Assembly: GCA_030533325.1 (NCBI GenBank) | Contig: JAUNJJ010000008.1 | Location: 9,219 to 73,218 of the forward strand | From: Oscillospiraceae bacterium | Lineage (GTDB): Bacteria; Bacillota; Clostridia; Oscillospirales; Ruminococcaceae | DNA: 64,000 bases | Reading direction: 5' to 3' | Part shown: positions 3,754-46,170 of the stretch, in pieces | Layout: each line of letters begins with the position of its first letter | Position numbering within the stretch: position 1 is the first letter of the stretch | Notes under the pieces: generated by a model | What the model was told of the DNA's origin: nothing | What the model saw: the letters and a program-made list of their open reading frames with translations, nothing else | The model's database searches: none | Translations under genes and position numbers: made by a program

Positions 3754-3782
3754 TACTCAGTTAAAAGCTGTACCGAATTTCA

Positions 3783-6819: not shown

Positions 6820-7249
6820 GCTGTATTACGGCAAGTCTGTCGCAACGTTCGTTTTCCGGGTGTCCGTTATGTCCTCTTACCCAGATGAATTCAACTTCGT
6901 GTTTCCGTATAAGAGGAAGCAGCTGCTTCCACAGGTCAGCATTGGGAACCGGTTTTGATCTTTCCTTAATCCAGTTCTTTTTCTCCCAGCTAAAAAGCCA
7001 TCCCTTTGTTACGCTGTTTACAACATACTGGCTGTCAGTGGTAAGTGTAACCCTGCACGGTTCCTTCAGTGCTGCCAGTGCAGTTATAACTGCAGTGAGT
7101 TCCATACGGTTGTTTGTTGTCTGAGCTTCGCCGCCGGAAAGTTCCTTTTCATGTTCGCCGTATCTGAGAATTGCTCCCCAGCCGCCCGGTCCGGGATTTC
7201 CGCTGCATGCTCCGTCTGTGAATATTTTAACTGTTTTTTTATTTTCCAT
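6800..7249 (-). CDS. rnhA: Ribonuclease HI
   Basis: [19 protein letters not shown]-terminus and the conserved RNase H fold motifs ([21 protein letters not shown]); overlaps the start of nifS by 20 nt (likely one operon). Confidence 0.85.
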
Positions 7250-7416
7250 GATTTTTTCTCCAAGTTCAGTATAATATTATTATATCTCATATATGAAATT
7301 TGTTCAAGTTGTTTTTTTTACGGGGATTGAATTAATTAAGATTATGTGATATAATTAATTTAAGAAAACGTTTACTTAAATAATTGTTTTTTTAATGAAT
7401 TGAAAGGGTGTATGTA

Positions 7417-11963: not shown

Positions 11964-11992
11964 TTGACATTTTGAATGATGGGATGTATAAT
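11964..11992 (+). promoter_or_regulatory. Consensus sigma-A promoter (TTGACA-17-TATAAT) for the dockerin repeat protein
   Basis: TTGACA at 11964-11969, a 17-nt spacer ending in TG, and TATAAT at 11987-11992. Confidence 0.6.
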
Positions 11993-12029
11993 AAATTTTA
12001 TAAAATTATTTAAGGACGGGGGATTAAAA

Positions 12030-14237
12030 ATGAGAAGATTTTTATCAGGGATAGTTTCGCTGTGCATTGTTTCATCAATGATTTCACAGGTATTTGCCGA
12101 AGGTGACATTCTGAAGGGCGATGTTAATGCAGACGGTATTCTTTCGGCGGCGGATATTGTCAGTATGAAAAAATATCTGCTTGGTGTGGATGTACAGACT
12201 GACAGGGAAGCTGCTGACATTAACAGTGACGGTAATATAAACATAATCGATATGATTCGTCTTATAGGAATGTTTACCGGAGAAACAGCTGCTAAACCTT
12301 CAGTTGCTGAAGTCAACAAAAATGCAGGAAATATTTACAGTACGGCGGTTATGGCGGTAAGATATCTTTCCGGTACGGGAGAAACATTTGAAGACGGTAT
12401 TTACACCAGTGATGACAAGTCCGAACTAACCGGTCTTATTGAAAAAAATGCGGATATTCCTTCCGGTATGCGCTGGTGTATTTCTCTGAAAGATTCAGTC
12501 GTAACCGAATGCCTGTGTGAAACAGGGGGAGTTACAGGAGCTTATCCTAATGTAATACCTCAGATGATGAATGCTGATTACGATAAGGTTAAGTTTGAGG
12601 ATCTTATGGATATCTATACAGACTGGAAAACTGCTTATCCGGAATTTATGTCAGGAAATTCTACGCTCAGTGAATATCCGGAGATAAGTACGGCGGAGAT
12701 GAATCAAATAGCCTGCAACATTAATCATGTAGCAGATACATACAGGTTTTATACAGACATTAAGGGAAGCGAGTATTATGAACTTTCTGACAAAACAGGT
12801 TATTTTTCAGATACGGATTTATCAGAAGAATTCAGGGACTTCATATACAGGCTTTCAGGACTTAATCCAGCGAACACAAGATTTATCATATCAGTTAAAG
12901 ACGGCTATACAGAAGGCTGCATCTGTACAGATGCAGCCGGACAGATAACAGGCTCATATCCGAATGCCGTTCCGCAGACCATGAATGTACCTTTTTCGTC
13001 TGAATATGCCGGATTTTCTGATAAGAAAACATTCAACTGGAAAACTGAAATGCCGCAGTTTATATCTGATGATCCAATACAGTCCTCATTGCCGGATTAT
13101 CCGGAAAGATCGGTTTCAGAGTATAATTCAGCGGCCAGAAAGATTTTCAGTGAAGTTCAGTGTATCACTCAGGAACTTGAGGCACAGGGGACGGAGCTTA
13201 AAGACGGGATATACACTCAGGACAGTAAAGAATTTCTGGAACTGTCGATGCCGGAAATGAAATTTGCTGTTTTAATAGAAAACTATATAGTTGAAGCCTG
13301 TATTGTTTCTAATGACGATTTTATACGAAGCGGTGCATATCCGAGCGGTATTCCTCAGAGTATGAATATTCCTTTTGACAGTAAATATCTGAAAGATGCA
13401 TCAGATTCTGACACTGACTGGAAAATGAAATATCCGGAATTTATTTCTGAAGACCCTGTTCAGGCGGCACTTCCTGATTATCCGTTTAAGCCTGTATCGG
13501 AATATAACAGAATTTCAAAAAGTCTGTTTTCAGATATCCAGACTTTATTGTATGAATATGAAACAAAGGGAATAGATGTAAAGAACGGCATTTATACTGA
13601 TGAAGACGAACTGTGCAGTGAATTCAGATCGAGGGAATATCATTTTTCAGTACTTATTGAAGATTATGTTGTAAAAGGTGTAGCTGCCGGATGTGAAAAC
13701 TGTACCGGTACATATCCGAACGCAATGTCGTCCTGTGTTATTATGCCTTTTAATGAAAAACTTGCGGAAAATGCGGCAGAAGATATATTATGGGAAGCTG
13801 AGTATGCAGATTATGTTTCAGGTGACCTTAAACTGATTGCCCCTGAATATTGTTTTTGCTGTCAGCCGTCATCAGTTCTAAATGGTTGTGCGAAAAAACT
13901 TTTTACAGCAGCTCAGACTGCAGCTGTTAATTGTGAAGCACAAGGAATTATAATTGACGGAGTATACAGCAGCAGTGATTCAAATGAGTATGTTGGCATG
14001 GTGAAGAGTTATTTATCTGATAAGTGCGACTGGAGTGTAAAGGTTGAGAATAATTATCTTGTCGGGGCGTGCGTAAAAGATAAAAACAGCAGCAACATGG
14101 GTGCTTACCCTAATAAGGTGCCTAATCATCTTAGCGTTGAGTATAAAGGATACAATGAACTCTGCGAGAAAGATGCTGACAATGAAAAATGGAATGAAAC
14201 CGGACGCGAATGGTTCTGGTATGATTTTATACGGTAA
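12030..14237 (+). CDS. Secreted N-terminal-dockerin protein made of five ~125-aa repeats of an uncharacterised Cys-containing domain
   Basis: GGGGGA ribosome binding site and ATG at 12030 (MRRFLSG... signal peptide); dockerin loops DVNADGILSAADI / DINSDGNINIIDM; five repeats each carrying DG(I/V)YT...G(A/S/T)YPN(A/V)(V/I)PQ and paired Cys. The ORF-track start at 11976 is less likely. Confidence 0.75.
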   Translation: MRRFLSGIVSLCIVSSMISQVFAEGDILKGDVNADGILSAADIVSMKKYLLGVDVQTDREAADINSDGNINIIDMIRLIGMFTGETAAKPSVAEVNKNAGNIYSTAVMAVRYLSGTGETFEDGIYTSDDKSELTGLIEKNADIPSGMRWCISLKDSVVTECLCETGGVTGAYPNVIPQMMNADYDKVKFEDLMDIYTDWKTAYPEFMSGNSTLSEYPEISTAEMNQIACNINHVADTYRFYTDIKGSEYYELSDKTGYFSDTDLSEEFRDFIYRLSGLNPANTRFIISVKDGYTEGCICTDAAGQITGSYPNAVPQTMNVPFSSEYAGFSDKKTFNWKTEMPQFISDDPIQSSLPDYPERSVSEYNSAARKIFSEVQCITQELEAQGTELKDGIYTQDSKEFLELSMPEMKFAVLIENYIVEACIVSNDDFIRSGAYPSGIPQSMNIPFDSKYLKDASDSDTDWKMKYPEFISEDPVQAALPDYPFKPVSEYNRISKSLFSDIQTLLYEYETKGIDVKNGIYTDEDELCSEFRSREYHFSVLIEDYVVKGVAAGCENCTGTYPNAMSSCVIMPFNEKLAENAAEDILWEAEYADYVSGDLKLIAPEYCFCCQPSSVLNGCAKKLFTAAQTAAVNCEAQGIIIDGVYSSSDSNEYVGMVKSYLSDKCDWSVKVENNYLVGACVKDKNSSNMGAYPNKVPNHLSVEYKGYNELCEKDADNEKWNETGREWFWYDFIR

Positions 14238-14345
14238 ATGTAGAACCATGGATTGATAAATTCGTTAATAAATACAATGAAAAAGGTGAAAAATTAACAA
14301 TCAACGCTCTGACTAATTATTAACATATAAAAGGTGAGCTTTAAA

Positions 14346-15185
14346 ATGAAATCGAAAAAAAAATATATAATAGGAGTTATTCTGTTATTCATTAGTTTGA
14401 TTGTTTATTTTGGTTATCTGTATAATTTCACAGGTTGTATAGTAACACCCAAATATATATATTCATCTGATTATAACGACGAGCATTATGATATAAAACA
14501 GAAGGTAGAAATAGACAGTGTAAGTTCTATTGAGATAACGAGTTCGGATTATAAGTCAACTCTAAGTAACTTAAAGTATTGTAACAACTTATCAAAACTC
14601 ATACTTTACACTTATGATTGTTATGACAATATGAATTTTTTAAGTGACCTAAAGTATATTGAGTTTCTAACCACCACATGTAAATCTAAAAGTTGGGATG
14701 GAATAAGTGGATGTACAAAATTAAAGTCGATAACTATGTTTTCGTCTGATTTTTCAGATTTAAATCTTCTTTCAGGTTTTTCTGAACTTTCAGAGCTGAA
14801 AATAGAATCTGAAAAGCAGATGAAATATGGCGGTTTAGATACTTTAACATCTTTGGAAAAACTTGTTCTTGCAGTCCAAAATGCTGATTTAAAAGAAATT
14901 TCAAAGGCTCCGAAAATAAATGAATTAGAGTTTCACTGCTTAAAAGACACTTCAAATATAAGCTATATATCTGAAATGGAAAATTTGAATTTTATATTTT
15001 TTGGTGCATGCGATATAGATGAAGAGATGCTGATGGAGCTGTCTGAGATACAAAAATTAAAAGAATTAAATTTTTATCGTTGCAAGTTTGACTTTGACGA
15101 AGATACTTTTATAAAATATCTAAATGATATTACCTCTAAAAATATAATTGTTAAATATGAAAAAAATGAATATTTATCAAAATAG
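14346..15185 (+). CDS. Membrane-anchored LRR-like protein (paralogue of 18390..19226)
   Basis: N-terminal transmembrane helix then a leucine-rich repeat-like domain (LSDLKYIEFL.., W-DGISGC, LSELKIES..). ATG at 14346 with AAGGTGAG ribosome binding site; shares an architecture and motifs with the gene downstream of toxin-like copy A. Confidence 0.65.
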   Translation: MKSKKKYIIGVILLFISLIVYFGYLYNFTGCIVTPKYIYSSDYNDEHYDIKQKVEIDSVSSIEITSSDYKSTLSNLKYCNNLSKLILYTYDCYDNMNFLSDLKYIEFLTTTCKSKSWDGISGCTKLKSITMFSSDFSDLNLLSGFSELSELKIESEKQMKYGGLDTLTSLEKLVLAVQNADLKEISKAPKINELEFHCLKDTSNISYISEMENLNFIFFGACDIDEEMLMELSEIQKLKELNFYRCKFDFDEDTFIKYLNDITSKNIIVKYEKNEYLSK

Positions 15186-15648: not shown

Positions 15649-18360
15649 AAGGAAGTAGAAGATGACAACGGTATTTCCGATAACGGTGAAATTAAACTTG
15701 GACTTGATCCGCTGAAAATAAAATCAGACGGAAAAACTTCTGATGCAGAGAGAATATTTGAACAGAAGTTAGATACAGACAGTGAAACATTCAGAGTAAT
15801 AAACAGTGAAGAAAATCCATATAGATTATCAGTATCTGCGAAAGCATCCGGATATATAGGTGAATCTGTTAATGCAAACATAAGTTCATATTCAAATTAT
15901 CTTCAGAATGAGGCAGTTGCAGGTGATATAATTGATATCGACTATGCGGATTCTTTTAAAATTGAAACACTGACAATAAGCTTTACTGTTTCTGAGAATG
16001 CAGCAGATTATTACATATTCAGATATTTTGAGGATGTAAATATGCTTCTGCCGGTTGAAACCCAGTATGACGGAAACAGGGTATATACTGAGGCTGCAGA
16101 AGACGGAACGTACTGTATTGTTGACATGGATAAGTGGATTGAAAATACGGCTGAAACAACAGAGGTACAAAGTGCAGGTGATGTTTATAATGCAGTTTAT
16201 GCATCATCTGAAGCAAAATCGCTTGAAAGTCTGGAAGTATATTTTCTTATGTATATCAGAAGTTCAAGCATTGACAGTGCAAGAAGTTCTGTAGCAAATG
16301 CTTCAAGAGCAATTATTGACTACTGTAACAGTACCGGCAGAGATGTGAGACTGTATTTTGCTGGATATACTGGTGCAACAGCAGTATCAAATGAAACAGG
16401 AAACTCATATGCAGACAATGCATCAACAGATGAAGAAATTCAGGAAATGCTAAGCGGAACAGATTCGGCAACAGGTTCGCTTGACACTACAAATTTTGAC
16501 TATTCTCTTACACGTGCATTAAAGAAGAGTCTTCTCGAGATATCCGGAACCAATGAAAACAGTAAGAAGTACTGTTTTGTAGTAGATGTGAATTTTGAAC
16601 CGAAAAGTGCATCGAATGTTGCAGTTGTGGATGAGATGAAGAGTTATGGTGTCGATTTCAGTTTTATATGTAATGACCATAACAGTAATATTGTAAATTA
16701 TGAAAGTCTTTCTTCAGATGGCACGCATATAAGATGGACTCCGGATTTTTCTGAGGTTATTACTGATAAAGTTTTAGGTGCTGTAGTAACATACAACGTA
16801 AATACAGGCTTATGTAATAAAATTCCGTATAACGAGGCTTTAATAACATCAGAATGGAAAGATATCTATGAAAAATTCTATTCCGGAAAGCTTTCAATCG
16901 ATGAGATAAAGAAATTGGGACTGCCGGATACAGATGGAGACGGAAATCCGGACTGTCTTGAAATTTTCATGAAATATATTAGTTTTGATGAGAATGGAAA
17001 TATAATACTGCCTGCATACGACGAGCTTGCGAGAGATACTATGGGAAACAGCAGGTTTGGATTAAAGGGACTGGATGAATTAGTCAGTATCATGAAGAAA
17101 AAAGGAATGAACATCAGTGATTTACGCATTCTTCCGTTAATATCAAATCCTGCGTTTGAAGACAGTGATTTTGATGGAATACCGGATAGTACAGATAAAA
17201 GACCTTCTGAAGAAGATATTATCAGTGTTGATGATAATATTATAGACGACAGCAGAGTGTTCGAAAGTGATTATAAAACCATAAGTAATAATGCTGTTGA
17301 TGGAAATGGCATTGCATCATCACACAGCGGAGACAAAAAGAACAATATTATTAAGTATGCAAGACTTATACGTGCGGACGGAAAAGCAACTTCAAAATTT
17401 TATATTGAGCCTGACAATAACAGTGATTATCTTATAACAGTTGACACAGGAAAGTATGATGATTGTCAGATAAAGGTGTCTTATGAAAAGGGAATAATAT
17501 TCAAGAAGGATGTAGCTGTTTCAGATATTGAACTGGATGAAGGAATCGAAGAAAAAGAGCAGAACGGAAACGTTATGCATAACAGAAAAGCGTATTCACT
17601 GGAAAAAGGGAAAAAATATAAGGTAATTGTAACGATAGCATCAACAGATTTTGCAGCTAATAACTATAGTGTTTCTTTTGAGCAGAATAACTGGGTTTAT
17701 GCACCTAATGGCGGATATGACTTCACAAAGATAAATAATTTTATGCAGACAGAAACTGTTTATACCGATGGTAATAGTCTTTTCAACATGCTGAAGGAAG
17801 CTGTTGAAAAATTAAAAGGTCCAAATGAAATAAAGGCAGATTCATTAAATGATTATCTTGAAGGTAAAAACAATGATCAATTGCAGTATGTTGCTGAAAA
17901 GAATGCAGAAACATTATTGGATTTTCATAAATTTACGGATTCAGATTTAGAAAAAATAGTAGGTGATATAGGGAATGCTGCTTCTCTTACTGGATTAAGT
18001 TCTTGTATGTTCTTGTATTTGGCACAGGATTCCGAATCAATGGCAATTTTAGCATTGTTAAATGGAATTGGTAATGGTTCCACTATTATTGGAGGAATTA
18101 CAGCTATATATGCCATAGTATCTGCAAATTCAAGTAGTAGTGAACAGCTTCTTGGTAATGCATTATATGAAGGTAGATATAATATCGCTACACACACAAC
18201 AAAGTCTACCTATAGTGAGATTGAGAGAGATTTTAGTACAACAGTGGTGACATATTCCGGATGGAGTGAATCTCATTTTATTAATCGATATAATACCGAT
18301 AATACAAGAAAAACAATAGTTGTTTATTTCGAAGGATTAAATCAAACTGTTATAAAGTGA
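15649..18360 (+). CDS. Polymorphic-toxin-like large protein, copy A (conserved N-terminal ~690 aa plus unique C-terminal ~215 aa); start codon unresolved
   Basis: The reading frame is open from the stop at 15646-48 to 18360 and coding-like throughout. EF-hand/TSP3-like Ca loops (DTDGDGNPDCLE, DSDFDGIPDSTD). The C-terminal domain has a Gly-zipper hydrophobic segment (GIGNGSTIIGGITAIYAIV). First in-frame ATG is 16042, which has a GAGGA ribosome binding site. The ATG at 15662 with a strong ribosome binding site is in the +1 frame and stops after 17 codons. Confidence 0.7.
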   Translation, partial: KEVEDDNGISDNGEIKLGLDPLKIKSDGKTSDAERIFEQKLDTDSETFRVINSEENPYRLSVSAKASGYIGESVNANISSYSNYLQNEAVAGDIIDIDYADSFKIETLTISFTVSENAADYYIFRYFEDVNMLLPVETQYDGNRVYTEAAEDGTYCIVDMDKWIENTAETTEVQSAGDVYNAVYASSEAKSLESLEVYFLMYIRSSSIDSARSSVANASRAIIDYCNSTGRDVRLYFAGYTGATAVSNETGNSYADNASTDEEIQEMLSGTDSATGSLDTTNFDYSLTRALKKSLLEISGTNENSKKYCFVVDVNFEPKSASNVAVVDEMKSYGVDFSFICNDHNSNIVNYESLSSDGTHIRWTPDFSEVITDKVLGAVVTYNVNTGLCNKIPYNEALITSEWKDIYEKFYSGKLSIDEIKKLGLPDTDGDGNPDCLEIFMKYISFDENGNIILPAYDELARDTMGNSRFGLKGLDELVSIMKKKGMNISDLRILPLISNPAFEDSDFDGIPDSTDKRPSEEDIISVDDNIIDDSRVFESDYKTISNNAVDGNGIASSHSGDKKNNIIKYARLIRADGKATSKFYIEPDNNSDYLITVDTGKYDDCQIKVSYEKGIIFKKDVAVSDIELDEGIEEKEQNGNVMHNRKAYSLEKGKKYKVIVTIASTDFAANNYSVSFEQNNWVYAPNGGYDFTKINNFMQTETVYTDGNSLFNMLKEAVEKLKGPNEIKADSLNDYLEGKNNDQLQYVAEKNAETLLDFHKFTDSDLEKIVGDIGNAASLTGLSSCMFLYLAQDSESMAILALLNGIGNGSTIIGGITAIYAIVSANSSSSEQLLGNALYEGRYNIATHTTKSTYSEIERDFSTTVVTYSGWSESHFINRYNTDNTRKTIVVYFEGLNQTVIK

Positions 18361-19507: not shown

Positions 19508-21701
19508 CTGAACAAATAACAAACAATCCCACCGAAACTGAGTTTTCAGAATCCGGCGGGATTGTTTTTATTTAATATGAAGTAATAATTGACAAATAAA
19601 TCATTCTGATGTATAATACTTTTATCAAATATTGAAAGGAAGTAGAAGATGGCAACGGTATTTCCGATAACGGTGAAATTAAACTTGGACTTGATCCGTT
19701 AAAAATAAAATCAGACGGAAAAACTTCTGACGCAGAGAGAATATTTGAACAGAAGTTAGATACAGACAGTGAAACATTCAGAGTAATAAACAGTGAAGAA
19801 AATCCATATAGATTATCAGTATCTGCGAAAGCATCCGGATATATAGGTGAATCTGTTAATGCAAACATAAGTTCATATTCAAATTATCTTCAGAATGAGG
19901 CAGTTGCAGGTGATATAATTGATATCGACTATGCGGATTCTTTTAAAATTGAAACACTGACAATAAGCTTTACTGTTTCTGAGAATGCAGCAGATTATTA
20001 CATATTCAGATATTTTGAGGATGTAAATATGCTTCTGCCGGTTGAAACCCAGTATGACGGAAACAGGGTATATACTGAGGCTGCAGAAGACGGAACGTAC
20101 TGTATTGTTGACATGGATAAGTGGATTGAAAATACGGCTGAAACAACAGAGGTACAAAGTGCAGGTGATGTTTATAATGCAGTTTATGCATCATCTGAAG
20201 CAAAATCGCTTGAAAGTCTGGAAGTATATTTTCTTATGTATATCAGAAGTTCAAGCATTGACAGTGCAAGAAGTTCTGTAGCAAATGCTTCAAGAGCAAT
20301 TATTGACTACTGTAACAGTACCGGCAGAGATGTGAGACTGTATTTTGCTGGATATACTGGTGCAACAGCAGTATCAAATGAAACAGGAAACTCATATGCA
20401 GACAATGCATCAACAGATGAAGAAATTCAGGAAATGCTAAGCGGAACAGATTCGGCAACAGGTTCGCTTGACACTACAAATTTTGACTATTCTCTTACAC
20501 GTGCATTAAAGAAGAGTCTTCTCGAGATATCCGGAACCAATGAAAACAGTAAGAAGTACTGTTTTGTAGTAGATGTGAATTTTGAACCGAAAAGTGCATC
20601 GAATGTTGCAGTTGTGGATGAGATGAAGAGTTATGGTGTCGATTTCAGTTTTATATGTAATGACCATAACAGTAATATTGTAAATTATGAAAGTCTTTCT
20701 TCAGATGGCACGCATATAAGATGGACTCCGGATTTTTCTGAGGTTATTACTGATAAAGTTTTAGGTGCTGTAGTAACATACAACGTAAATACAGGCTTAT
20801 GTAATAAAATTCCGTATAACGAGGCTTTAATAACATCAGAATGGAAAGATATCTATGAAAAATTCTATTCCGGAAAGCTTTCAATCGATGAGATAAAGAA
20901 ATTGGGACTGCCGGATACAGATGGAGACGGAAATCCGGACTGTCTTGAAATTTTCATGAAATATATTAGTTTTGATGAGAATGGAAATATAATACTGCCT
21001 GCATACGACGAGCTTGCGAGAGATACTATGGGAAACAGCAGGTTTGGATTAAAGGGACTGGATGAATTAGTCAGTATCATGAAGAAAAAAGGAATGAACA
21101 TCAGTGATTTACGCATTCTTCCGTTAATATCAAATCCTGCGTTTGAAGACAGTGATTTTGATGGAATACCGGATAGTACAGATAAAAGACCTTCTGAAGA
21201 AGATATTATCAGTGTTGATGATAATATTATAGACGACAGCAGAGTGTTCGAAAGTGATTATAAAACCATAAGTAATAATGCTGTTGATGGAAATGGCATT
21301 GCATCATCACACAGCGGAGACAAAAAGAACAATATTATTAAGTATGCAAGACTTATACGTGCGGACGGAAAAGCAACTTCAAAATTTTATATTGAGCCTG
21401 ACAATAACAGTGATTATCTTATAACAGTTGACACAGGAAAGTATGATGATTGTCAGATAAAGGTGTCTTATGAAAAGGGAATAATATTCAAGAAGGATGT
21501 AGCTGTTTCAGATATTGAACTGGATGAAGGAATCGAAGAAAAAGAGCAGAACGGAAACGTTATGCATAACAGAAAAGCGTATTCACTGGAAAAAGGGAAA
21601 AAATATAAGGTAATTGTAACGATAGCATCAACAGATTTTGCAGCTAATAACTATAGTGTTTCTTTTGAGCAGAATAACTGGGTTCATGCACCTAATGGAG
21701 G
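19508..21701 (+). repeat. 2.19-kb tandem duplication block B
   Basis: See block A; promoter TTGACA 19589-19594 / TATAAT 19612-19617, ribosome binding site, and ATG 19649 in the +1 frame as in copy A. Confidence 0.95.
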
Positions 21702-22269
21702 TATACAACATGTCGTTCCGTATAACTGTTATTTTCCAGTTGATAGAATGTTTATAGCTACGGACACTTTTAAGCTAGCATTACAAAAAAACCATAAAAT
21801 CATGATAGACGAAAATTCAGATACAGAAAGTCAAACGAAAGCTATTATGAAACAATTAGGCCTTGATGATGGTAAGAAAGTTCTTTTTGATAGTTTTCTT
21901 ACTGCTGTCGGTACTTGTATATCGGGAAGTGCTACTGCTGCTGCAATAGTTGATCCGGAACCTGGAACGAAAATAATAATTGCATGTATAGCGGATGGTA
22001 TAAATACATATTTTGTGGCTTCTTCAATAAAATCTACATTTGGATATTTTGAATCTAAAGATTTTGAAAATGCTTGCAATGAAGGCGATATTAACCTTAT
22101 ATTCACTAAAAAAGGGCAAGTAACATTTTTTCAAGATCTTTGGGATCCATGGAAAACCGCTCCGTATATAAGCAAATATGATACAGATTCAATGAATGGA
22201 AGAACAAAAAGAACAATTGATAAAAATATAACCGCTGAATCAGTTATAAGTTATTGTGGGTTAAAATGA
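19636..22269 (+). CDS. Polymorphic-toxin-like large protein, copy B (same N-terminal ~690 aa, different C-terminal ~190 aa)
   Basis: Open frame from the stop at 19633-35. Identical to copy A up to ...SFEQNNWV, then unrelated (HAPNGGIQHVVPYNCYF...). The C-terminal domain has a hydrophobic Gly/Ala-rich segment (AVGTCISGSATAAAIV...IIIACIADGI). Confidence 0.7.
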   Translation, partial: KEVEDGNGISDNGEIKLGLDPLKIKSDGKTSDAERIFEQKLDTDSETFRVINSEENPYRLSVSAKASGYIGESVNANISSYSNYLQNEAVAGDIIDIDYADSFKIETLTISFTVSENAADYYIFRYFEDVNMLLPVETQYDGNRVYTEAAEDGTYCIVDMDKWIENTAETTEVQSAGDVYNAVYASSEAKSLESLEVYFLMYIRSSSIDSARSSVANASRAIIDYCNSTGRDVRLYFAGYTGATAVSNETGNSYADNASTDEEIQEMLSGTDSATGSLDTTNFDYSLTRALKKSLLEISGTNENSKKYCFVVDVNFEPKSASNVAVVDEMKSYGVDFSFICNDHNSNIVNYESLSSDGTHIRWTPDFSEVITDKVLGAVVTYNVNTGLCNKIPYNEALITSEWKDIYEKFYSGKLSIDEIKKLGLPDTDGDGNPDCLEIFMKYISFDENGNIILPAYDELARDTMGNSRFGLKGLDELVSIMKKKGMNISDLRILPLISNPAFEDSDFDGIPDSTDKRPSEEDIISVDDNIIDDSRVFESDYKTISNNAVDGNGIASSHSGDKKNNIIKYARLIRADGKATSKFYIEPDNNSDYLITVDTGKYDDCQIKVSYEKGIIFKKDVAVSDIELDEGIEEKEQNGNVMHNRKAYSLEKGKKYKVIVTIASTDFAANNYSVSFEQNNWVHAPNGGIQHVVPYNCYFPVDRMFIATDTFKLALQKNHKIMIDENSDTESQTKAIMKQLGLDDGKKVLFDSFLTAVGTCISGSATAAAIVDPEPGTKIIIACIADGINTYFVASSIKSTFGYFESKDFENACNEGDINLIFTKKGQVTFFQDLWDPWKTAPYISKYDTDSMNGRTKRTIDKNITAESVISYCGLK

Positions 22270-24489: not shown

Positions 24490-25518
24490 TTATTCTGAAG
24501 AAACATATCTTCTGATTCTGTATTTCTGATTTCTGCTGCTTGGTTTATCAGGAACAGTACGTTCAATCACGCCTTTTTCCAGTGCAGGTGACAGATAATT
24601 TTTCCTGAAAGTAGGTTTATGTGATAATCCAAGTCTGCTCATAAGTTCAGAAGCAGAAAGTTCTGATGTTCCCAATGCAGATAAAAGTTTCGTAATGTTA
24701 TCAGTAACCTGGTCGGTATCCTGGTCGGTATCCTGGTCGCTGACCTGGTCGGTTGTAGTAACAGTGCTGTTCATGGTATCTGTTATCGTATCAAGCATAA
24801 ATTCTATAAATCTGGTTGAATCAGCAGCATCGTTGCAGTAATTAATGGTTTTATAGTATTCCTGTTGCTTTTTATAAATCATTGATTCTATTGGTAAAAA
24901 TGCAAAAACAGGATTCCAGCTGAAGAGAAGAAGAGTGTGCCAGAGCCTTCCTATTCGTCCGTTTCCGTCTGAAAAGGGATGAATCAACTCAAATTCATAA
25001 TGAAAAACACAGATTTTTATCAGCATATGAACATCACTTTCTTCAGTCCATTTCAGAAGGCTGACTACCATTTCCGGAACATAGTCAGGAAGTGTGCCGA
25101 AGTGGATAATCTGACCTGTGCTGCTGTCTGCGACTCCGACGGGATGATCACGAAATTCGCCAGCATTGTTTAAAAGACCTTTCATCATTACACCATGTGC
25201 ATTTAAAAGGTCATCACATGAAAACGGATTAAGAAGGTGCATGTTTTCGTATATTTCATATGCGTTTTTTACTTCTTTTATGTCTTTTGGAGGAGCCAGT
25301 ACGGTTTTTCCGTTTATCACATCTGTTATCTGTTCCAGAGTAAGACTGTTCTGTTCAATTGCAAGTGAGCCCTGAATTGTAAGTATTCTGTTTTTCCTGC
25401 GCAGAGTAGGGTTTCGTTCAAGGTTTGCTGATGCAGATATTTTCCCTGTAAGTTCTGCAATCCGGGCAACCTCTTCTATTATTTTGTTATTTATCTTAAA
25501 AGGCGGTGAATAGGACAT
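24490..25518 (-). CDS. Fic-family protein (AMPylation/Doc-like fold) with C-terminal winged-helix region
   Basis: Canonical Fic motif HPFSDGNGRIGRLWHTLLL; N-terminal Fic_N-like segment; internal 12-bp tandem repeats encoding a DQ(D/V)(S/T) repeat. Confidence 0.85.
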   Translation of the reverse strand: MSYSPPFKINNKIIEEVARIAELTGKISASANLERNPTLRRKNRILTIQGSLAIEQNSLTLEQITDVINGKTVLAPPKDIKEVKNAYEIYENMHLLNPFSCDDLLNAHGVMMKGLLNNAGEFRDHPVGVADSSTGQIIHFGTLPDYVPEMVVSLLKWTEESDVHMLIKICVFHYEFELIHPFSDGNGRIGRLWHTLLLFSWNPVFAFLPIESMIYKKQQEYYKTINYCNDAADSTRFIEFMLDTITDTMNSTVTTTDQVSDQDTDQDTDQVTDNITKLLSALGTSELSASELMSRLGLSHKPTFRKNYLSPALEKGVIERTVPDKPSSRNQKYRIRRYVSSE

Positions 25519-25739: not shown

Positions 25740-27368
25740 TCATATTCCATTCTGACGATTCTGCTTAAACTTCTGCTTATTTTCGTACATCATAGTATCT
25801 GCACGTTTCATAGTTGCGTCGAGATCTTCATCAATATTTTCATCATAAACTGCGTAACCCGCAGAAACGCTCATATTAACAACAAATTTTTTCCTGTTCA
25901 GCTCCCGGATTTTCTTCTGAATAATTCTGAGCTTGCTATCTATCTCGTTCTGACCTGTATACTGCATAAGTACACAGAATTCATCGCCACCTATTCGGTA
26001 ACATTTTCCATCTACTCCGAATGCCTCAGATATGATTTTTGATACAGATGAGATGTATATATCTCCGTTCTCATGTCCGAACTGATCATTGCATTTTTTC
26101 AGGTCATTAAGATCAAAAATGAAAACTGCAACAGGTATAATCTTCTTTTCCCCGGTATTTTTGTCCTCGATGACCAGCTTGTCCATATCTGCACGAAACG
26201 CTGTACGGTTAAAAACTCCGGTAAGTTCATCCGTAAATGCAAGATTCTTATAAATCTCTGCTTCGTTTGCACGTTCCTTGATTTTCTGTGACTCTTTTAC
26301 AATATTAGCAGCCATGATAACTACGTATATTATGAAGCAGAACATACCATAGCTGCTGTCTTTATTGAACAGTTTCAGGACCATTATCTCAAGAAGAGTC
26401 GCAGCCAGTATTATAATCAGACAAATAATGTTGATTCTGAGTCGCCTTGTTACTCTGTGCGTCACAAATTCCTTTACGCCTAAAACTATGCCAACTACAG
26501 CAAAAACTAAAATATATAACTGAGTTATCCATAAAGTCTCACGCATCTCTGCTATCCGGAATACATCTAAAACTGTTCTTATAATAACCAGTCCGACACC
26601 TGCATACTGAGTGATGTCCCACAGGATATTTTCCTTGTCAGTATATATCTGGCGAAGAAACTGAAGAAATGCAACAGGCATAAGCATCAGTGAATAATGA
26701 TTCAGCATAGTACACACAAGTGTACCGGGAAACAGGAGATCACATACTTTTGAATTAGTTGCTGCCCATACTGCAAGAAGTATGCTGAATACTGAAAAGA
26801 ATACCGGCGTCGAATCAGCATAATTCAGTTTAAGAATAAATACTGAATACAGCATCAGAATAATTCCGACAACAAGAATAATTACTGCAAGTGTCATTCT
26901 TAATCCGTAATCTGTAAATATTGCTTTATAGATATCAGAAGTTTCGCCAAAATACAGTATATCATCAGGAGATATATTTTTATAAGGTGATTTTTGATGA
27001 ATTACAATATTCTTACCTGCATCTTTATCACTGAGTTTGATAAAGTTCCATCTGTATCCGGTTGAGTGTGTTCTTGATTCATCAAAAGGACGGCATTCAT
27101 AGATTTTAACGCCATCAATAAAAACTTCTGAACTGAAATGAGATGTATTGTAAGCAAGATTCTTTCCCGTTACATCCATATCCGGCAGTGTGAATTCATA
27201 ATAGAAATTCCCTGATTTTTCTTCAAACTCCATATTGATTTTTACAGCACCGTCATACCTTGTCCTGTTCTCAAAAGAACATCCGAGCCCTGATCCGACA
27301 ATATATGCAAACAGAACAGACACTGCAAAAAACACGAGAAAAAAATAATCATATTTTTTCCTGTTCAT
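25740..27368 (-). CDS. Diguanylate cyclase with extracytoplasmic sensor plus 7TM module (7TMR-DISM-like) and C-terminal GGDEF domain
   Basis: Signal/transmembrane helix, ~150-aa extracellular domain, seven hydrophobic helices, then GGDEF with an intact active site (YRIGGDEFCVLM) and an I-site-like RxxD (KKCND). Confidence 0.8.
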   Translation of the reverse strand: MNRKKYDYFFLVFFAVSVLFAYIVGSGLGCSFENRTRYDGAVKINMEFEEKSGNFYYEFTLPDMDVTGKNLAYNTSHFSSEVFIDGVKIYECRPFDESRTHSTGYRWNFIKLSDKDAGKNIVIHQKSPYKNISPDDILYFGETSDIYKAIFTDYGLRMTLAVIILVVGIILMLYSVFILKLNYADSTPVFFSVFSILLAVWAATNSKVCDLLFPGTLVCTMLNHYSLMLMPVAFLQFLRQIYTDKENILWDITQYAGVGLVIIRTVLDVFRIAEMRETLWITQLYILVFAVVGIVLGVKEFVTHRVTRRLRINIICLIIILAATLLEIMVLKLFNKDSSYGMFCFIIYVVIMAANIVKESQKIKERANEAEIYKNLAFTDELTGVFNRTAFRADMDKLVIEDKNTGEKKIIPVAVFIFDLNDLKKCNDQFGHENGDIYISSVSKIISEAFGVDGKCYRIGGDEFCVLMQYTGQNEIDSKLRIIQKKIRELNRKKFVVNMSVSAGYAVYDENIDEDLDATMKRADTMMYENKQKFKQNRQNGI

Positions 27369-27741: not shown

Positions 27742-29541
27742 ATGAAATCAAAGAATTTATTAAGAAGCATAACAGGCATTGCACTTGCTTCTGCTGTGTT
27801 TCTCTCACAGGCAGTCATGCCCTCATCTTCTGTTACCGAAAATGTGCTGCATAATTCGTACACAGTAAGAGCGGCTGCTTCAACACCGGATGAATGTGAC
27901 TACGTTTTTGAGGTTGGTGAAGAAATCGGCGGAATCATCGTTGATGAAGAAAAAGACGAAAAGGTACAGTACGTACTCGACCTTTCTTCTCAGGTACCGT
28001 CTGACGCAAAGATCGAATCTGTCATGATCAGTGTTTCAACTGGTTCTGCTGACGAACTTGCAATGGTTGCTATCGGATGCCATGTGCCGGGATACAACGA
28101 AGATGACTGGTATTCTGATTCCGGTCAGGATACAGGTGAGGAACTGCTGTTTACATACAACATTCCTGAAGAAATCGCAGCTTCATACGGCAGCGACTTC
28201 ACTGAACTCTTCATACAGCACTGGTGGGGAACCGGAGATCAGCTGGTTACTGTAAACAAAGTAGGAGTAAATGTTTCAGGCGGTGCAGGAAGTGCAGTGC
28301 CGGGAGATTTCGATGGTGACAAAAAGGTAAAAAGTGCTGACCTTATTCTGTTCTCGCAGTATATGACAGGTGAGATAACAGGAGATTACTATGACATCGT
28401 TGCTGACTATAACGGAGACGGAACAGTAAACATTCTCGACTTCATAAAGATGAAGGCTAAGTTTGTTTCTGCAGCCGGAGGAGATATAACGGATGACGGC
28501 AAGACAGCAATTGAGTTTGTTGAAAACATCACTGTCGGATGGAACCTCGGAAACACTCTTGAATCAACATGTGACTGGATTGAAAATCCTACTCCGGAAC
28601 AGTTTGAAAAGGCATGGGGCAATCCGGTAACTACAAAGGCAATGATAGACGCCGTAAAATCAATGGGATTCAACACTGTCCGCGTACCTGTAAGCTGGGG
28701 ACAGAAAATGGGACCTGCGCCTGATTACAAAGTAAGCGACGAATGGATGGACAGAGTAAATGAAGTTGTTGACTATGTTATCGAAAATGACATGTACTGC
28801 ATACTCAATGTTCACCATGACAATGACTGGGTAGTTCCTACAAATGAAAAATATGACGCTGCATGCGATCAGCTCACTAAGCTCTGGGAACAGATTTCAG
28901 TTCGCTTTGAAAAATATGATGAACACCTTATATTTGAAACACTCAACGAACCACGTCTTGTCGGAACAGATCTTGAATGGACAGGCGGAAACCATGAGGC
29001 AAGAGACTGCATAAACAGATTTAACGCTGCAGCAGTTGAAACTATCCGTTCAACAGGCGGAAACAATGCTCTCCGTTACATCATGTGCCCTACATACGCA
29101 GCATCAGGTTCATCAGCAACTGTAAATGACTATGTTGCACCTGATGATGACAGAGTTATCGTTTCTATCCATGCTTATTCACCTTATTTCTTCGCACTTG
29201 CAAACACTGACACACCTGGTTCGGTATCAACATTCGGAACAGATGCTGACAAGGCTTCACTCAATGCTGAACTCAAACTCCTCTATGATAAGTTTGTCTC
29301 ACAGGGAAGAGCAGTTGTCATCGGCGAAATGGGTGCAATGAACAAGGATAATGACGAAGACAGAGAAAGATGGGCTGAATTCTATATTAAAACAGCAAAA
29401 TCCTACGGAATCCGCTGCGTATGGTGGGATAACAACCTTACGGTCGGAGAAGGAGAAAGATTCGGACTTATTAACAGATCAACACTTGAACCGGCATATC
29501 CGGGAATAGTAGATGCTCTTTTCAGAGGCCTTGAAGACTAA
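27742..29541 (+). CDS. Cellulosomal glycoside hydrolase family 5 enzyme with an internal dockerin
   Basis: Signal peptide, an N-terminal ~170-aa module, dockerin loops (DFDGDKKVKSADL / DYNGDGTVNILDF), then a GH5 catalytic domain with acid/base NEP (FETLNEPR) and nucleophile region VIGEMGA. Confidence 0.8.
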   Translation: MKSKNLLRSITGIALASAVFLSQAVMPSSSVTENVLHNSYTVRAAASTPDECDYVFEVGEEIGGIIVDEEKDEKVQYVLDLSSQVPSDAKIESVMISVSTGSADELAMVAIGCHVPGYNEDDWYSDSGQDTGEELLFTYNIPEEIAASYGSDFTELFIQHWWGTGDQLVTVNKVGVNVSGGAGSAVPGDFDGDKKVKSADLILFSQYMTGEITGDYYDIVADYNGDGTVNILDFIKMKAKFVSAAGGDITDDGKTAIEFVENITVGWNLGNTLESTCDWIENPTPEQFEKAWGNPVTTKAMIDAVKSMGFNTVRVPVSWGQKMGPAPDYKVSDEWMDRVNEVVDYVIENDMYCILNVHHDNDWVVPTNEKYDAACDQLTKLWEQISVRFEKYDEHLIFETLNEPRLVGTDLEWTGGNHEARDCINRFNAAAVETIRSTGGNNALRYIMCPTYAASGSSATVNDYVAPDDDRVIVSIHAYSPYFFALANTDTPGSVSTFGTDADKASLNAELKLLYDKFVSQGRAVVIGEMGAMNKDNDEDRERWAEFYIKTAKSYGIRCVWWDNNLTVGEGERFGLINRSTLEPAYPGIVDALFRGLED

Positions 29542-43261: not shown

Positions 43262-43567
43262 CTTTTTTTCTCCGTTCTCCGGTTTGCTCCTATTCGTCGT
43301 TTTGATAAATAGCACATAAATCCGGTAATTGAAAATCAGTGATATGTATAAAACAAACACTATACCTATATTATACACGAATTAAAAAATAAATTCAATA
43401 CTTTCGGCAAAACAAATTTTATTGCAGGGATATATTCCTGTGGTATATATCTGCGGTGATAAAATAGAAGGTAAAAAAATCTGACGGTATTCTGCATACA
43501 TGTCGCTGGTCTAAAGTGTGCATATTAACAAATCCACGATATGAAACAAAAAAAATTATATAAACTA

Positions 43568-43596
43568 TTGACAGCGAATGTATGAGGTGGTATACT
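43568..43596 (+). promoter_or_regulatory. Promoter of a long riboswitch-containing leader
   Basis: TTGACA-17-TATACT. Confidence 0.5.
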
Positions 43597-43764
43597 GAAT
43601 ACAGAAGTTAAGTTGAAGTTAATTATTTCGGAACTTGTCTTCTTTTCTAACCTGAACATCTGACAACATCTTACTCATTCATCTTACTACTTTATCAGTA
43701 CACATTTTTTAATGATTTTATCTTTCATCTTACTACTCAAAATAATAAAATAGTAAAAATTTAA

Positions 43765-43860
43765 ATATTGGGCAAACTTGCTGAAAGGCAAGGACGCAAA
43801 GCTAACGGGTCTAAACCGATAATAAGAGGGTATGACAGCCAGCTGCACAATTTTTAAACG
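43765..43860 (+). ncRNA. c-di-GMP-I (GEMM) riboswitch aptamer candidate
   Basis: GGGCAAAC-uugcuGAAAggcaa-GGACGCAAAGCUAACGGGUCUAAACCG...UGACAGCCAGCUGC matches, from memory, the conserved GEMM core (GCAAAC, GNRA loop, GGACGCAAAGC..GGG, RCAGCCRGYUGC). A downstream terminator at 43896..43927 acts as the expression platform. Confidence 0.75.
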
Positions 43861-43895
43861 AACCATTAAAAAGGGCGTTTATGGTTGGAACTTAA

Positions 43896-43927
43896 GGCTG
43901 ATACCTAAAAAGTATCAGCCTTTTATT
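43896..43927 (+). terminator. Leader terminator (riboswitch expression platform)
   Basis: ggctgatacc-uaaaaa-gtatcagcc + TTTT, 50 nt before the ribosome binding site of the downstream gene. Confidence 0.65.
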
Positions 43928-43977
43928 ATTTTTAATATTAAAATTATTTGAGTAAATAAAAAACGGGAGGAATCGTT

Positions 43978-46170
43978 ATGAGAAAAGTTGCAAAATTTTT
44001 TAGCGGACTTTTATCCGCTTCTCTTGCATTTAATTTTGCAGCACCAGCTGTATCACAGTATATTGCTGCAGCAGAGACTGAGATTGCAAGTCTGAGTGAA
44101 GTTGTAAGAGCGGGTTTTGAAAATTATGAAACATCCATAGATATAAGCAGGTTTAAACTTACTGCAGAAGATTTTCCTCGAATTTCAGAGGTGGTTAACT
44201 ATGTAAGAACAATTCCTGAGCTTTTCTATATTTCCGTGGATGGAAATGTGGGAGTTTCCCAGGTGTGGAGCGACAGTGAACAGAAAGCTTTTGTAAGCAC
44301 GCTTAATATAAAGTATAACAATACTTATGAAGAGGCAAAGCCTCTTATAGATGAATTCAATGCAAAAGCTGACGAGATAATAAGCGAAGTTATAACGGAT
44401 GATATGTCTGAACTTCAGAAAGCACTTAAGCTTCATGACTATCTCGTACTTAATACAGTATATGATACAACAGGCGAACTCCCGGACTTAAACAAAGGTT
44501 CATCTGCATATGATATTTTAGTGTGCGGAAACGGTATCTGTCAGGGATATGCACAGGCATACAATGTTCTTCTCCAGAGAGCCGGTATGGATTCAATAAT
44601 GGTTGTAAGCTATGATATGAAACATGCATGGAATCTTGTAAGCGTTGACGACGAATGGTATCATGTTGACGTTACATGGGATGACCCGGTTCCGGATTCT
44701 CCTGGTCTGGTTAATCACAAGTATTTTCTCCTCTCAGACGACGAGATACAGAAGGAGACTGATACAAGACATGAGCACAGGAACTGGGATGCAAAGGGAT
44801 TTACGGCAACTTCGACAAAGTATGACAATGCTTTCTGGGTTGATGTAAGAACTGAAATTATCTGTCAGGGCGACCGCTGGTACTATATGAGCGGTTCCGG
44901 CGAATACAGCACATACATAGAGTCAACCGGTGAAGTAAATACAAACGTCAGTGTCTGCGAAGAATCATGGCCTGACTGGAACAATCCGGCAGCTTTCTAC
45001 ACAGCAAAGTACTCAAGCCTCATTATTTCAGACGGAGTACTCCTGTTCAACACACCTACACATATTTACAAGATGAATCTTGATGGTTCGAACAAGCAGG
45101 GGCTTAGATATATACATCCGAATGAAGTAAACGGTTATATATACGGGCTTAGCATTATGGATGACAAGCTTTATGCAGTTATCAAACAGGAACCGCTTGA
45201 CGAAGGTACACTTTATGAAGTTAAGGACGTTGACATTCATGCCATTAAGTTTGAAGGCAAGGTTTCAGTAATAGATACTCTTCTTGCAGATATCTTGTAT
45301 ATGGAAGACGGTTCTTCCAAAAAATACAATATGGATACTGAGACAATCCTTCCTGCAGAGGCTATTGAATGCATGAAGGGCAAAGATATCAGGCTTACAC
45401 TTGAACTCGACGGCTATAACTGGGATATCAGCGGCAAAAACGTTACTACTGAAGAAGCAAACGATCTTAATCTTGAAATCAAACGCGATCAGGGTTTAAT
45501 TCCTGACGAGATGGTTGCTTCAGTTTCAAATGCAACTTCAAAGTGCATTGAGCTTAACCTTACACATAATGGTGAATTCGGCCTTTCGGCTGATATAAAC
45601 TATAATGTCGGCACAGAACTTTCAAACAAAATAGCGATTTTATATTACTACAATCAGGCCGAATCGACAATGGATCAGCTGGAATTCACAATGATTGATA
45701 ATGAAGGTAACATTAACCTTAATCTTTATCATGCATCGAGTTATGCAGTAATCGTTCAGGATGCCCAGAGTCCTTCAGACCCTATAATATCCGAACAGGA
45801 GAAACCACCTCAAACTGAAGAACCTGCAGTTACGACAGTAGCTACAGACAAGGCTCCGGAGGAAACAACTGTCGCTTCTTCAGAAACAACAGTATCTGAA
45901 ACTACTACTGTAACATCAGAGACAACAGCGGCTGAAACTACAATTGACAGTTCAATCGAAGTTGAACCTGAAGTATTAAAGGGCGACATCACAATGAACG
46001 GTGCAGTTGATGTAACAGATCTTACTTACTTATCACTTGCATGTCTTAAGGAATACACACTTTCTGACATTCAGTTCAAAGCAGCTGACGTAAACGAAGA
46101 CGGTAAGGTAAACCTTTCAGACCTTGCAAGAGTAAGACAGCGTATATCAAACATTATCGAAAAGTTATGA
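43978..46170 (+). CDS. Secreted transglutaminase-like (Cys-His-Asp) protein with C-terminal dockerin
   Basis: Signal peptide; TGase-like core CQGYAQAY...HAWNLV...DVTWDD; Thr/Glu/Pro linker; dockerin loops (DITMNGAVDVTDL / DVNEDGKVNLSDL). Confidence 0.75.
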   Translation: MRKVAKFFSGLLSASLAFNFAAPAVSQYIAAAETEIASLSEVVRAGFENYETSIDISRFKLTAEDFPRISEVVNYVRTIPELFYISVDGNVGVSQVWSDSEQKAFVSTLNIKYNNTYEEAKPLIDEFNAKADEIISEVITDDMSELQKALKLHDYLVLNTVYDTTGELPDLNKGSSAYDILVCGNGICQGYAQAYNVLLQRAGMDSIMVVSYDMKHAWNLVSVDDEWYHVDVTWDDPVPDSPGLVNHKYFLLSDDEIQKETDTRHEHRNWDAKGFTATSTKYDNAFWVDVRTEIICQGDRWYYMSGSGEYSTYIESTGEVNTNVSVCEESWPDWNNPAAFYTAKYSSLIISDGVLLFNTPTHIYKMNLDGSNKQGLRYIHPNEVNGYIYGLSIMDDKLYAVIKQEPLDEGTLYEVKDVDIHAIKFEGKVSVIDTLLADILYMEDGSSKKYNMDTETILPAEAIECMKGKDIRLTLELDGYNWDISGKNVTTEEANDLNLEIKRDQGLIPDEMVASVSNATSKCIELNLTHNGEFGLSADINYNVGTELSNKIAILYYYNQAESTMDQLEFTMIDNEGNINLNLYHASSYAVIVQDAQSPSDPIISEQEKPPQTEEPAVTTVATDKAPEETTVASSETTVSETTTVTSETTAAETTIDSSIEVEPEVLKGDITMNGAVDVTDLTYLSLACLKEYTLSDIQFKAADVNEDGKVNLSDLARVRQRISNIIEKL

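Follow-up and report, generated by a model that had tools for sequence, protein, structure and literature searches.

A conserved leader predicted to act as a class-I c-di-GMP OFF switch for a dockerin-bearing transglutaminase-like gene of rumen and gut Oscillospiraceae

Introduction

Can a second messenger that reports attachment of the cell also reach the cellulosome, and through which of its components? This question is raised by a 375-nucleotide (nt) leader found in a 64-kb stretch of DNA from an Oscillospiraceae bacterium (assembly GCA_030533325.1, contig JAUNJJ010000008.1, positions 9,219 to 73,218), the whole of which, 64,000 nt, is called the window in the following. The leader precedes a gene for a 730-residue protein with a transglutaminase-like domain and a dockerin, referred to here as the transglutaminase-dockerin gene. 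A first-pass annotation made from the letters alone had read in it a class-I cyclic diguanylate (c-di-GMP) riboswitch, also named GEMM, together with a promoter and an intrinsic terminator, and had described the downstream gene as encoding a secreted transglutaminase-like protein with a dockerin, under a form of control that it took not to be known as characterised.

Riboswitches for c-di-GMP are well known, with thousands annotated, and high c-di-GMP usually goes with the attached state of the cell. The finding of another member is thus routine, and the noteworthy part is its target, a dockerin-bearing thiol enzyme that is not a glycosidase. Since 2010, transglutaminase-like proteins with a dockerin have figured in the Ruminococcus cellulosome as a component without an explanation, and R. 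flavefaciens FD-1 has ten of them (PMC2930009). In the present study we have analysed the leader, its counterparts in related genomes and the protein that it precedes, and we propose a mechanism by which c-di-GMP would turn the gene off.

Results and Discussion

A Class-I c-di-GMP Aptamer in the Leader and Its Conservation

The whole window was scanned with cmscan against Rfam 15 at the curated thresholds, which is the check that had been proposed beforehand, and the riboswitch passed it strongly. The c-di-GMP-I family (RF01051) matches the plus strand of the leader over the complete model (positions 1-87 of 87) with a score of 71.8 bits, where 35 bits would pass the gathering threshold, and an E-value of 4e-12 (the coordinates of this and all other features are collected in Table 1). 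It is the sole Rfam family above threshold in the 64 kb, and a scan of the leader alone gives the same match. The two-helix architecture of the class, P1 with a GNRA tetraloop and P2, is seen here, the tetraloop being a GAAA at positions 43783-43786. The core elements GGCAAAC, GACGCAAAGC, GGGUCU and GUAUGACAGCC are invariant across all the aptamer copies that we describe below, and the stems vary. Over 18 distinct related aptamers, in an alignment that was fitted to the model and is biased towards its structure, 95.3% of the cells in the stems are paired and five pairs are changed on both sides, examples in the tetraloop stem being U-A to C-G, G-C to A-U and C-G to U-A. This covariation score was reached by none of 500 shuffles, and slid registers were only 18-52% paired.

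RF01051 also takes in variants that sense cyclic GMP-AMP (cGAMP), known as GEMM-Ib, and those selective for cGAMP have an A at the position of G20 of the Vc2 aptamer, where the c-di-GMP-selective members have a G. G43771, A43798 and C43846, which we take to correspond to the ligand contacts G20, A47 and C92 of Vc2, are unchanged in 11 aligned aptamers, and a G stands at the equivalent of 43771 in every copy of the aptamer. These putative contact residues are as in c-di-GMP-selective members. The variant families of the RF01051 clan in Rfam all score below RF01051 itself on the leader. Two further candidates were rejected after a permissive Rfam scan of the region 43380-44000. The scan returned a single c-di-GMP-I match, which rules out a second, degenerate aptamer in the 160 nt that precede the first, and the other families that appeared (RefA9, P26, LhrC, pan and tsr33) were sub-threshold, centred on the terminator hairpin and taken as chance.

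In order to follow the pairing of riboswitch and gene through other genomes, loci with homologues of the protein were gathered, 78 from species-representative genomes and 79 from metagenomes, together with the locus of Ruminococcus sp. HUN007 (the loci carry L numbers; R. flavefaciens fell outside the best 80 genome loci of the homologue search). With Rfam, a c-di-GMP-I aptamer is found upstream of every full-length orthologue, from 30 to 96% identical in protein sequence, at 16 loci (L002-L010, L080-L085 and L159), lying about 95-200 nt upstream of the start codon. Five of these loci (L003, L004, L081, L082 and L159) have a second aptamer before a second, tandem paralogue. The instances thus amount to 22, window included, and every one is followed by a terminator. 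A covariance model of our own, built from 11 related aptamers and run over the 1.18 Mb of fetched loci, recovered the same 22 instances and nothing else. The hosts are rumen and gut Oscillospiraceae and include the cultured Ruminococcus sp. HUN007, in which both tandem paralogues are preceded by the switch. A protein search returned full-length homologues with the same two Pfam domains, and their named sources are Ruminococcus or Oscillospiraceae. The tandem copies are each served by a promoter, an aptamer and a terminator of their own. In HUN007 (GCA_000712055.1) they span L159 6001-11313, with the aptamers at 5786-5874 and 8678-8765; the genome of the window has the first copy only at this locus.

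About 140 loci hold more remote homologues, with similarity confined to the N-terminal portion of the protein (approximately residues 1-460), and in these, including the dockerin-bearing L061, our own model detected no GEMM; Rfam scans of 31 distant-homologue loci likewise returned neither c-di-GMP-I nor c-di-GMP-II. The riboswitch is thus ruled out as a general trait of the protein superfamily, and also as one of dockerin genes, since the GH26/CBM35, the GH5 and an uncharacterised dockerin gene of the window are without it and the transglutaminase-dockerin gene is the only one of four to have it. A pairing strictly conserved in one clade and absent outside argues for a function and against a relic. 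The E-value of the RF01051 match and an arrangement kept in 22 instances exclude chance, and we consider it very likely that the element is a c-di-GMP-I riboswitch controlling the transglutaminase-dockerin gene. The pairing which the first-pass annotation had pointed out is thereby upheld: a terminator lies between the aptamer and the ribosome-binding site (RBS), and all the full-length orthologues that were found share the pairing.

The Expression Platform and the Proposed OFF Switch

The promoter and the intrinsic terminator that had been claimed for the leader are both present. The promoter, which agrees with the consensus at 11 of 12 positions, recurs as a TTGACA-N17-TATACT box 5' of the aptamer in 17 of 20 orthologous leaders, window included. 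The GC-containing terminator stem (43894-43922) is followed by TTATTATTTT, and each of the 21 distinct leaders has a hairpin with a U-tract that separates aptamer from RBS; in the 17 that can be aligned over the terminator and antiterminator, the stem is 98.9% paired, with three compensatory pairs. A GGAGG-type RBS is found at the equivalent place in most orthologues. The hairpin in the spacer that separates aptamer and terminator is just 76% paired in the alignment, and the spacer segment (43856-43888) may serve as a kinetic helper.

One strand of the aptamer has two possible partners. The sequence GGUAUGACAGCC (43829-43840), which is the 3' strand of helix P2, is complementary to the terminator 5' arm GGCUGAUACC (43896-43905) over 10 bp with a GA bulge, the arm (43895-43905) doubling as the 3' arm of a predicted antiterminator. 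In the window this duplex has an energy of -12.9 kcal/mol by RNAduplex, matched by none of 300 shuffles. Duplexes of -10 to -14 kcal/mol are formed in 19 of the 21 leaders, and in 15 of these no more than five of 300 shuffles were as good; the shuffles that equalled the antiterminator numbered from 8 to 237 of 300 in L083, L008 and the partial cases L084 and L085. Aligned over 17 leaders, the antiterminator helix is paired in 99.4% of the cells of its 10 pairs. Where the terminator arm is substituted, G replaces A opposite U (five leaders) or U replaces C opposite G (four leaders at one column and one at another), and each of these changes keeps a wobble with the invariant aptamer strand and, through compensation, the pairing with the terminator 3' arm. 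The more distant leaders L010 and L008 retain the complementarity in shifted registers. When transcripts are cut at the end of the terminator 5' arm, the antiterminator is in the minimum-energy fold of 19 of the 21 leaders. The fold of the aptamer without ligand lies 2.7-14 kcal/mol higher in energy, a calculated gap that is small enough to be reversed by tight binding of the ligand.

We propose that transcription would start from the promoter at 43568-43596 and proceed into the 375-nt leader. With c-di-GMP bound, the aptamer would hold GGUAUGACAGCC in helix P2, the hairpin 43894-43922 with its U-tract would form and RNA polymerase would terminate 5' of the RBS. At low c-di-GMP, GGUAUGACAGCC would instead pair with 43895-43905 as the antiterminator and lead to read-through into the gene, so that the enzyme would be made mainly under this condition, secreted and docked on cohesin-bearing scaffoldins. 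The ligand-bound state should terminate because the only strong competitor of the terminator arm, the 3' strand of the aptamer, is sequestered when the ligand is bound. We regard it as probable that the leader is a class-I c-di-GMP transcriptional OFF switch for the transglutaminase-dockerin gene, and for the OFF direction taken by itself we have good, if not full, confidence. The analysis establishes what the aptamer is, the presence of the terminator, the complementarity of the competing strands, their conservation and the domains of the protein; that the RNA binds its ligand, which way it switches in vivo, that the protein docks and what the enzyme does are inferred.

Several points weigh against the OFF switch as proposed. 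The terminator is the minimum-energy structure of the full-length leader whatever the state of the ligand, so that the switching would be kinetic. Since the aptamer strand is invariant, no two-sided covariation is possible in the antiterminator, the support for which consists of complementarity and wobble-compatible changes only, and a shuffle control on the alignment of this helix was uninformative. Both ligand binding and termination are predictions made wholly from sequence and thermodynamics. In the distant leaders L084 and L085 the antiterminator pairing is weak or partial, and the minimum-energy fold of L007 favours a different pairing. The conserved AUGGUUGG (43881-43888) also pairs with the 3' strand of the aptamer, and our model has no need of it. 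The long region upstream of the aptamer and a long-range helix, both described below, could be a further layer of control, and the model leaves the two unexplained. Finally, class-I ON switches do exist, as in the case of Bc2 of Bacillus thuringiensis (PMC6366702).

If the same aptamer were such an ON switch, c-di-GMP would prevent termination, and the enzyme would be a product of cells with high c-di-GMP, which are attached or in a biofilm. This would agree with the behaviour of R. flavefaciens FD-1, in which the attachment condition of cellulose goes with 3-4 fold higher levels of a tandem group of dockerin-bearing proteins (four transglutaminase-like open reading frames (ORFs) and one ORF with leucine-rich repeats) (PMC2930009), and the pairing of AUGGUUGG with the aptamer 3' strand allows a switching scheme more complex than the one that we propose. 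However, the terminator is a self-contained hairpin lying 44 nt downstream of the aptamer, with no overlap between them, and its 5' arm has as sole strong competitor the very strand that the ligand-bound aptamer sequesters; no element was found in the leader able to break the terminator only when the aptamer is folded. We regard an ON switch as unlikely, and retain the OFF switch as the preferred mechanism.

The Leader Upstream of the Aptamer

The region between promoter and aptamer is poor in G and rich in C, U and A, with 8% G and 17% C over its whole length and, from 43640 to 43760, 4% G and 20% C. It contains several conserved blocks, namely ACAGAAGATAA, TCTAACCTRAACA, CTTACT repeats and TTACTACTCA, and a -10-like nAnnnT box directly 5' of the aptamer; RNAalifold over nine orthologous leaders gave a consensus structure of 0 pairs for the region. 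The distance from promoter to aptamer is 144-188 nt in the leaders of first paralogues (class A), window included, and 52-72 nt in those of second paralogues. The long G-poor region is present in first-paralogue leaders only, the second-paralogue leaders being without it. Possible roles are a rut-like loading site, binding sites for proteins on RNA or DNA, or a second promoter.

The direct repeat of 14 bp that the first-pass annotation had seen upstream of the aptamer is there: the exact 14-mer TTCATCTTACTACT occurs exactly twice, at 43678-43691 and 43724-43737, and a third, degenerate copy was found at 43667-43679. Blocks related to CTTACT(A/C) are kept in orthologous leaders. We rejected the motif CATCTTACTACT as a dispersed element or target site, its frequency in the window being not above that of shuffles and its exact copies being confined to the leader. 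A leader peptide was also rejected, since the 13-codon ORF at 43711 has no RBS and the same ATG is directly followed by a stop in L003, L004 and L159.

The 27 nt directly upstream of the aptamer form the 5' arm of a long-range helix that would enclose both aptamer and terminator, its 3' arm beginning in the tail of the U-tract and ending shortly before the RBS. In the window this helix has an RNAduplex energy of -12 kcal/mol, matched by none of 300 shuffles, and the equivalent duplexes beat nearly all shuffles in most first-paralogue leaders. Compensatory changes between orthologues are seen in its core, CUCA-nnn/nnn-UGAG, which reads CUCAAA/UUUGAG in the window, CUCAUA/UAUGAG in L002, CU(C/U)AUGU/ACAUGAG in L083 and L007, and CUACUCA/UGAGUAG in L003. 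With a small sample of about six lineages, and in a region rich in AT, we treat this helix as a lead.

A sequence that is conserved without a consensus structure, that has 4-8% G and that carries three copies of one motif may suggest an RNA acting in trans. The main product would then be the terminated leader of about 330 nt, made at high c-di-GMP and working as a small RNA or protein sponge through its G-poor CUUACU region, with control of the gene being secondary. The A-tract directly 5' of the aptamer is complementary to the tail of the terminator's U-tract, a pairing that could stabilise the terminated RNA, and RCd5, a class-I riboswitch RNA of Clostridioides difficile, is associated with Hfq (PMC11651100). 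However, the second-paralogue leaders (52-nt leader) keep aptamer and terminator without the G-poor region, from which it follows that the switch is independent of this region; furthermore, the repeat motif has no partner elsewhere in the window, and an aptamer tied strictly to a single gene family favours control in cis. An action in trans as the main function seems to us distinctly unlikely.

Even though C. difficile 630 has, among its 12 class-I riboswitches, five without control over the following gene (PMC6366702), it is very improbable that the aptamer is an evolutionary relic or that it senses another dinucleotide such as 3'3'-cGAMP in the manner of GEMM-Ib, given a full-length RF01051 match far over threshold, lower scores of the variant families of the clan, a G at the critical contact position in all copies, an invariant core with stems that covary in 22 instances, which span orthologues down to 30% protein identity, and an expression platform that is conserved too.

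Some second-paralogue leaders have an insertion of about 75-100 nt with GC-rich hairpins (e.g., CCGGAAAUCCGG...CCGGAUUUCCG), placed between terminator and RBS in L004 (approximately 6840-6950), L081 and L082, whereas L003, L006 and L159 are without it. Either a short mobile repeat or an additional hairpin with a regulatory role may be involved.

The Regulated Protein and Its Relation to Known Systems

The protein encoded downstream of the leader fits the description given in the first-pass annotation. A Pfam scan at E<=0.01 places a Transglut_core domain (PF01841) at residues 136-231, with 42.4 bits over a cutoff of 23, and a type I dockerin (Dockerin_1, PF00404) at residues 668-723, with 41.9 bits over a cutoff of 22.9, and the N-terminus has a signal-peptide-like segment. 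The two calcium-binding repeat segments of the dockerin, DITMNGAVDVTDL and DVNEDGKVNLSDL, are visible in the translation, and dockerins of the PDB match it. The triad Cys188-His216-Asp231 is invariant in 25 homologues and lies within motifs typical of the superfamily, on the ground of which the enzyme is probably active. An AlphaFold2 model made with the 25 homologues has a mean predicted local distance difference test score (pLDDT) of 75. It has the transglutaminase-like core in an alpha/beta region at the N-terminus, followed by a beta-rich part (approximately residues 295-420) that matches beta-propellers, a beta-sandwich (approximately 445-595) and a disordered linker rich in Thr, Glu and Pro (598-663) ahead of the dockerin. 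The best match among solved structures is TglA of Streptococcus pyogenes (9crn), with a Foldseek E-value of 1.5e-9 and a phmmer E-value of 4e-8; our literature search, which left out most subscription journals, found no paper on that structure. The enzyme may be a protease, a cross-linker or an amidase, classes that sequence alone cannot tell apart. Membership of the LapG family (BTLCP, DUF920) was rejected, since the only other match besides PF01841 and PF00404 is a weak EF-hand.

The architecture itself is known from R. flavefaciens FD-1, where ORF01263-01266 have a signal peptide, a transglutaminase-like domain and a C-terminal dockerin and are tandem paralogues as well, although no riboswitch has been reported for them (PMC2930009). 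As for the switch, the closest likeness is with Cd1 (Cdi-1-3) of the flgB operon of C. difficile, in which an RF01051 aptamer in a 5' leader of the Clostridia is followed by an intrinsic terminator and c-di-GMP favours termination, as in all seven functional class-I riboswitches of that species, which are OFF switches of the terminator type (PMC6366702); for the switch of the window the same direction is a prediction. In contrast to Cd1, which governs flagellar genes, the target here is a dockerin-bearing transglutaminase-like enzyme, and the leader has in addition the long, conserved G-poor region and the long-range helix. A secreted enzyme behind a class-I OFF switch is found in C. difficile with zmpI (PPEP-1, CD2830), whose product has surface proteins as its substrates: the adhesins CD2831 and CD3246 are cut from the cell by ZmpI, and low c-di-GMP therefore leads to release (PMC6366702). 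The logic would be the same for the window if its enzyme is a protease, with the difference that ZmpI is a zinc metalloprotease and the enzyme of the window has a Cys-His-Asp triad, a transglutaminase-like fold and a dockerin. A transglutaminase-like cysteine protease acting outside the cytoplasm is restrained by c-di-GMP in Pseudomonas fluorescens, where LapG releases the adhesin LapA and is held back through LapD (PMC3032545). This comparison is a functional analogy, in class of fold and in logic of control, and not a classification, because the protein of the window lies outside the LapG family, having PF01841 and not DUF920/BTLCP; moreover, LapG is controlled at the protein level, through sequestration by LapD, and not at that of RNA.

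The broad association had already been seen computationally. In a table of a 2025 survey, the transglutaminase-like genes of COG1305 in the Bacillota are enriched behind tandem c-di-GMP-I riboswitches (PMC12452182). The entry shares with the window the class of riboswitch, the broad enzyme superfamily and the phylum; unlike the tandem aptamers listed there, each gene has here a single aptamer, with no second one in its leader, and the entry as given in the survey does not take up dockerins, the direction of switching or the expression platform. The same literature search found no paper on the control of dockerin or cellulosome proteins by c-di-GMP. The statement that the link was uncharacterised stands for dockerin and cellulosome proteins, with the COG1305 association already listed in that table entry.

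Since no orthologue in this clade of bacteria associated with rumen fibre has lost the pairing, our results suggest that signalling of the attachment state reaches the cellulosome through a transglutaminase-like enzyme rather than through glycoside hydrolases. An enzyme made at low c-di-GMP offers, for a component that had remained without explanation, the hypothesis of a protease of release or remodelling. By analogy with LapG and ZmpI, it is possible, if doubtful, that at low c-di-GMP a docked cysteine protease of transglutaminase fold would cut the anchors of the cellulosome or of the cell surface and free the cell from the fibre, and that it would be off at high c-di-GMP. If this were true, the system would be an RNA-level counterpart of LapG of Pseudomonas and of ZmpI/PPEP-1 of C. 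difficile, and would, for the first time as far as is known, connect a second messenger with the remodelling of the cellulosome. The cultured Ruminococcus sp. HUN007 carries the switch, so that the hypothesis can be tested in culture.

Genomic Context and Other Features

Table 1. Features of the leader, of the gene that it precedes and of other loci of interest in the window.
Feature	Position	Strand	Evidence or remark
Sigma-70-type promoter, TTGACA-17 nt-TATACT with TG extension	43568-43596	+	11/12 consensus matches
Pre-aptamer leader, ~158 nt	43603-43760	+	G-poor, conserved blocks, no consensus structure
Three copies of CATCTTACT(ACT) motif, starts 43667, 43680, 43726	43667-43737	+	Repeat search
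Long-range helix enclosing aptamer and terminator	5' arm 43734-43760 / 3' arm 43928-43954	+	Inverted repeat
c-di-GMP-I (GEMM-I) aptamer	43761-43850	+	RF01051, 71.8 bits
Putative switching strand GGUAUGACAGCC: P2 3' strand and antiterminator 5' arm	43829-43840	+	Duplex with 43895-43905
Spacer hairpin AAACG...CGUUU (43856-43880), then AUGGUUGG (43881-43888)	43856-43888	+	Conserved; AUGGUUGG can pair with aptamer 3' strand
Intrinsic terminator: 11-bp stem 43894-43904/43912-43922, loop CTAAAAA, U-tract 43923-43935	43894-43935	+	Hairpin -14.5 kcal/mol
RBS GGGAGG, 7 nt 5' of ATG (43978)	43965-43970	+	Read from sequence
Transglutaminase-dockerin gene, 730 residues	43978-46170	+	Pfam, translation
Dockerin gene, GH26+CBM35	7408-9342		Without riboswitch
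Dockerin gene, uncharacterised protein, N-terminal dockerin	11976-14237		Without riboswitch
Dockerin gene, GH5, internal dockerin	27742-29541		Without riboswitch
Membrane-bound GGDEF protein	25740-27368	-	GGDEF, 102.7 bits

With Spo0A, SpoIVB, ffh, rpsP, rimM and trmD next to its four dockerin-bearing genes, the window looks like part of a genome of the rumen Ruminococcus type within the Clostridia. A glycogen phosphorylase gene is divergently transcribed upstream of the transglutaminase-dockerin gene, and the order Polysacc_synt, phosphorylase, transglutaminase-dockerin gene is common to the window and the rumen isolate Ruminococcus sp. HUN007.

A putative cyclase with seven transmembrane (TM) segments and a GGDEF domain, which had been suggested as a source of the signal, is indeed encoded on the minus strand. 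Its RIGGDEF motif is intact, and hydropathy places one TM segment at the N-terminus, then a stretch of about 130 residues outside the cytoplasm and another seven TM segments. The gene lies 16.6 kb from the transglutaminase-dockerin gene, measured between gene ends, and 17.8 kb from its promoter. The GGDEF protein is a plausible source of c-di-GMP for the riboswitch, with no specific link between the two. It resembles sensors of the 7TMR-DISM type, though Pfam makes no call for that family at E<=1e-4, and no RxxD I-site is seen directly before the GGDEF motif. A Fic-domain gene (24490-25518, minus strand) adjoins it on the same strand.

Large ORFs of 772, 746, 299, 365 and 283 residues (16042-18360, 20029-22269, 2854-4880, 14334-15185) have no Pfam match at E<=1e-5. 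Among the fetched loci, a metagenome-assembled genome of the Acutalibacteraceae (L022, 402-476, minus strand) contains a Gut-1 RNA (RF01706, 57.8 bits), unrelated to the riboswitch, which adjoins two tRNA genes.

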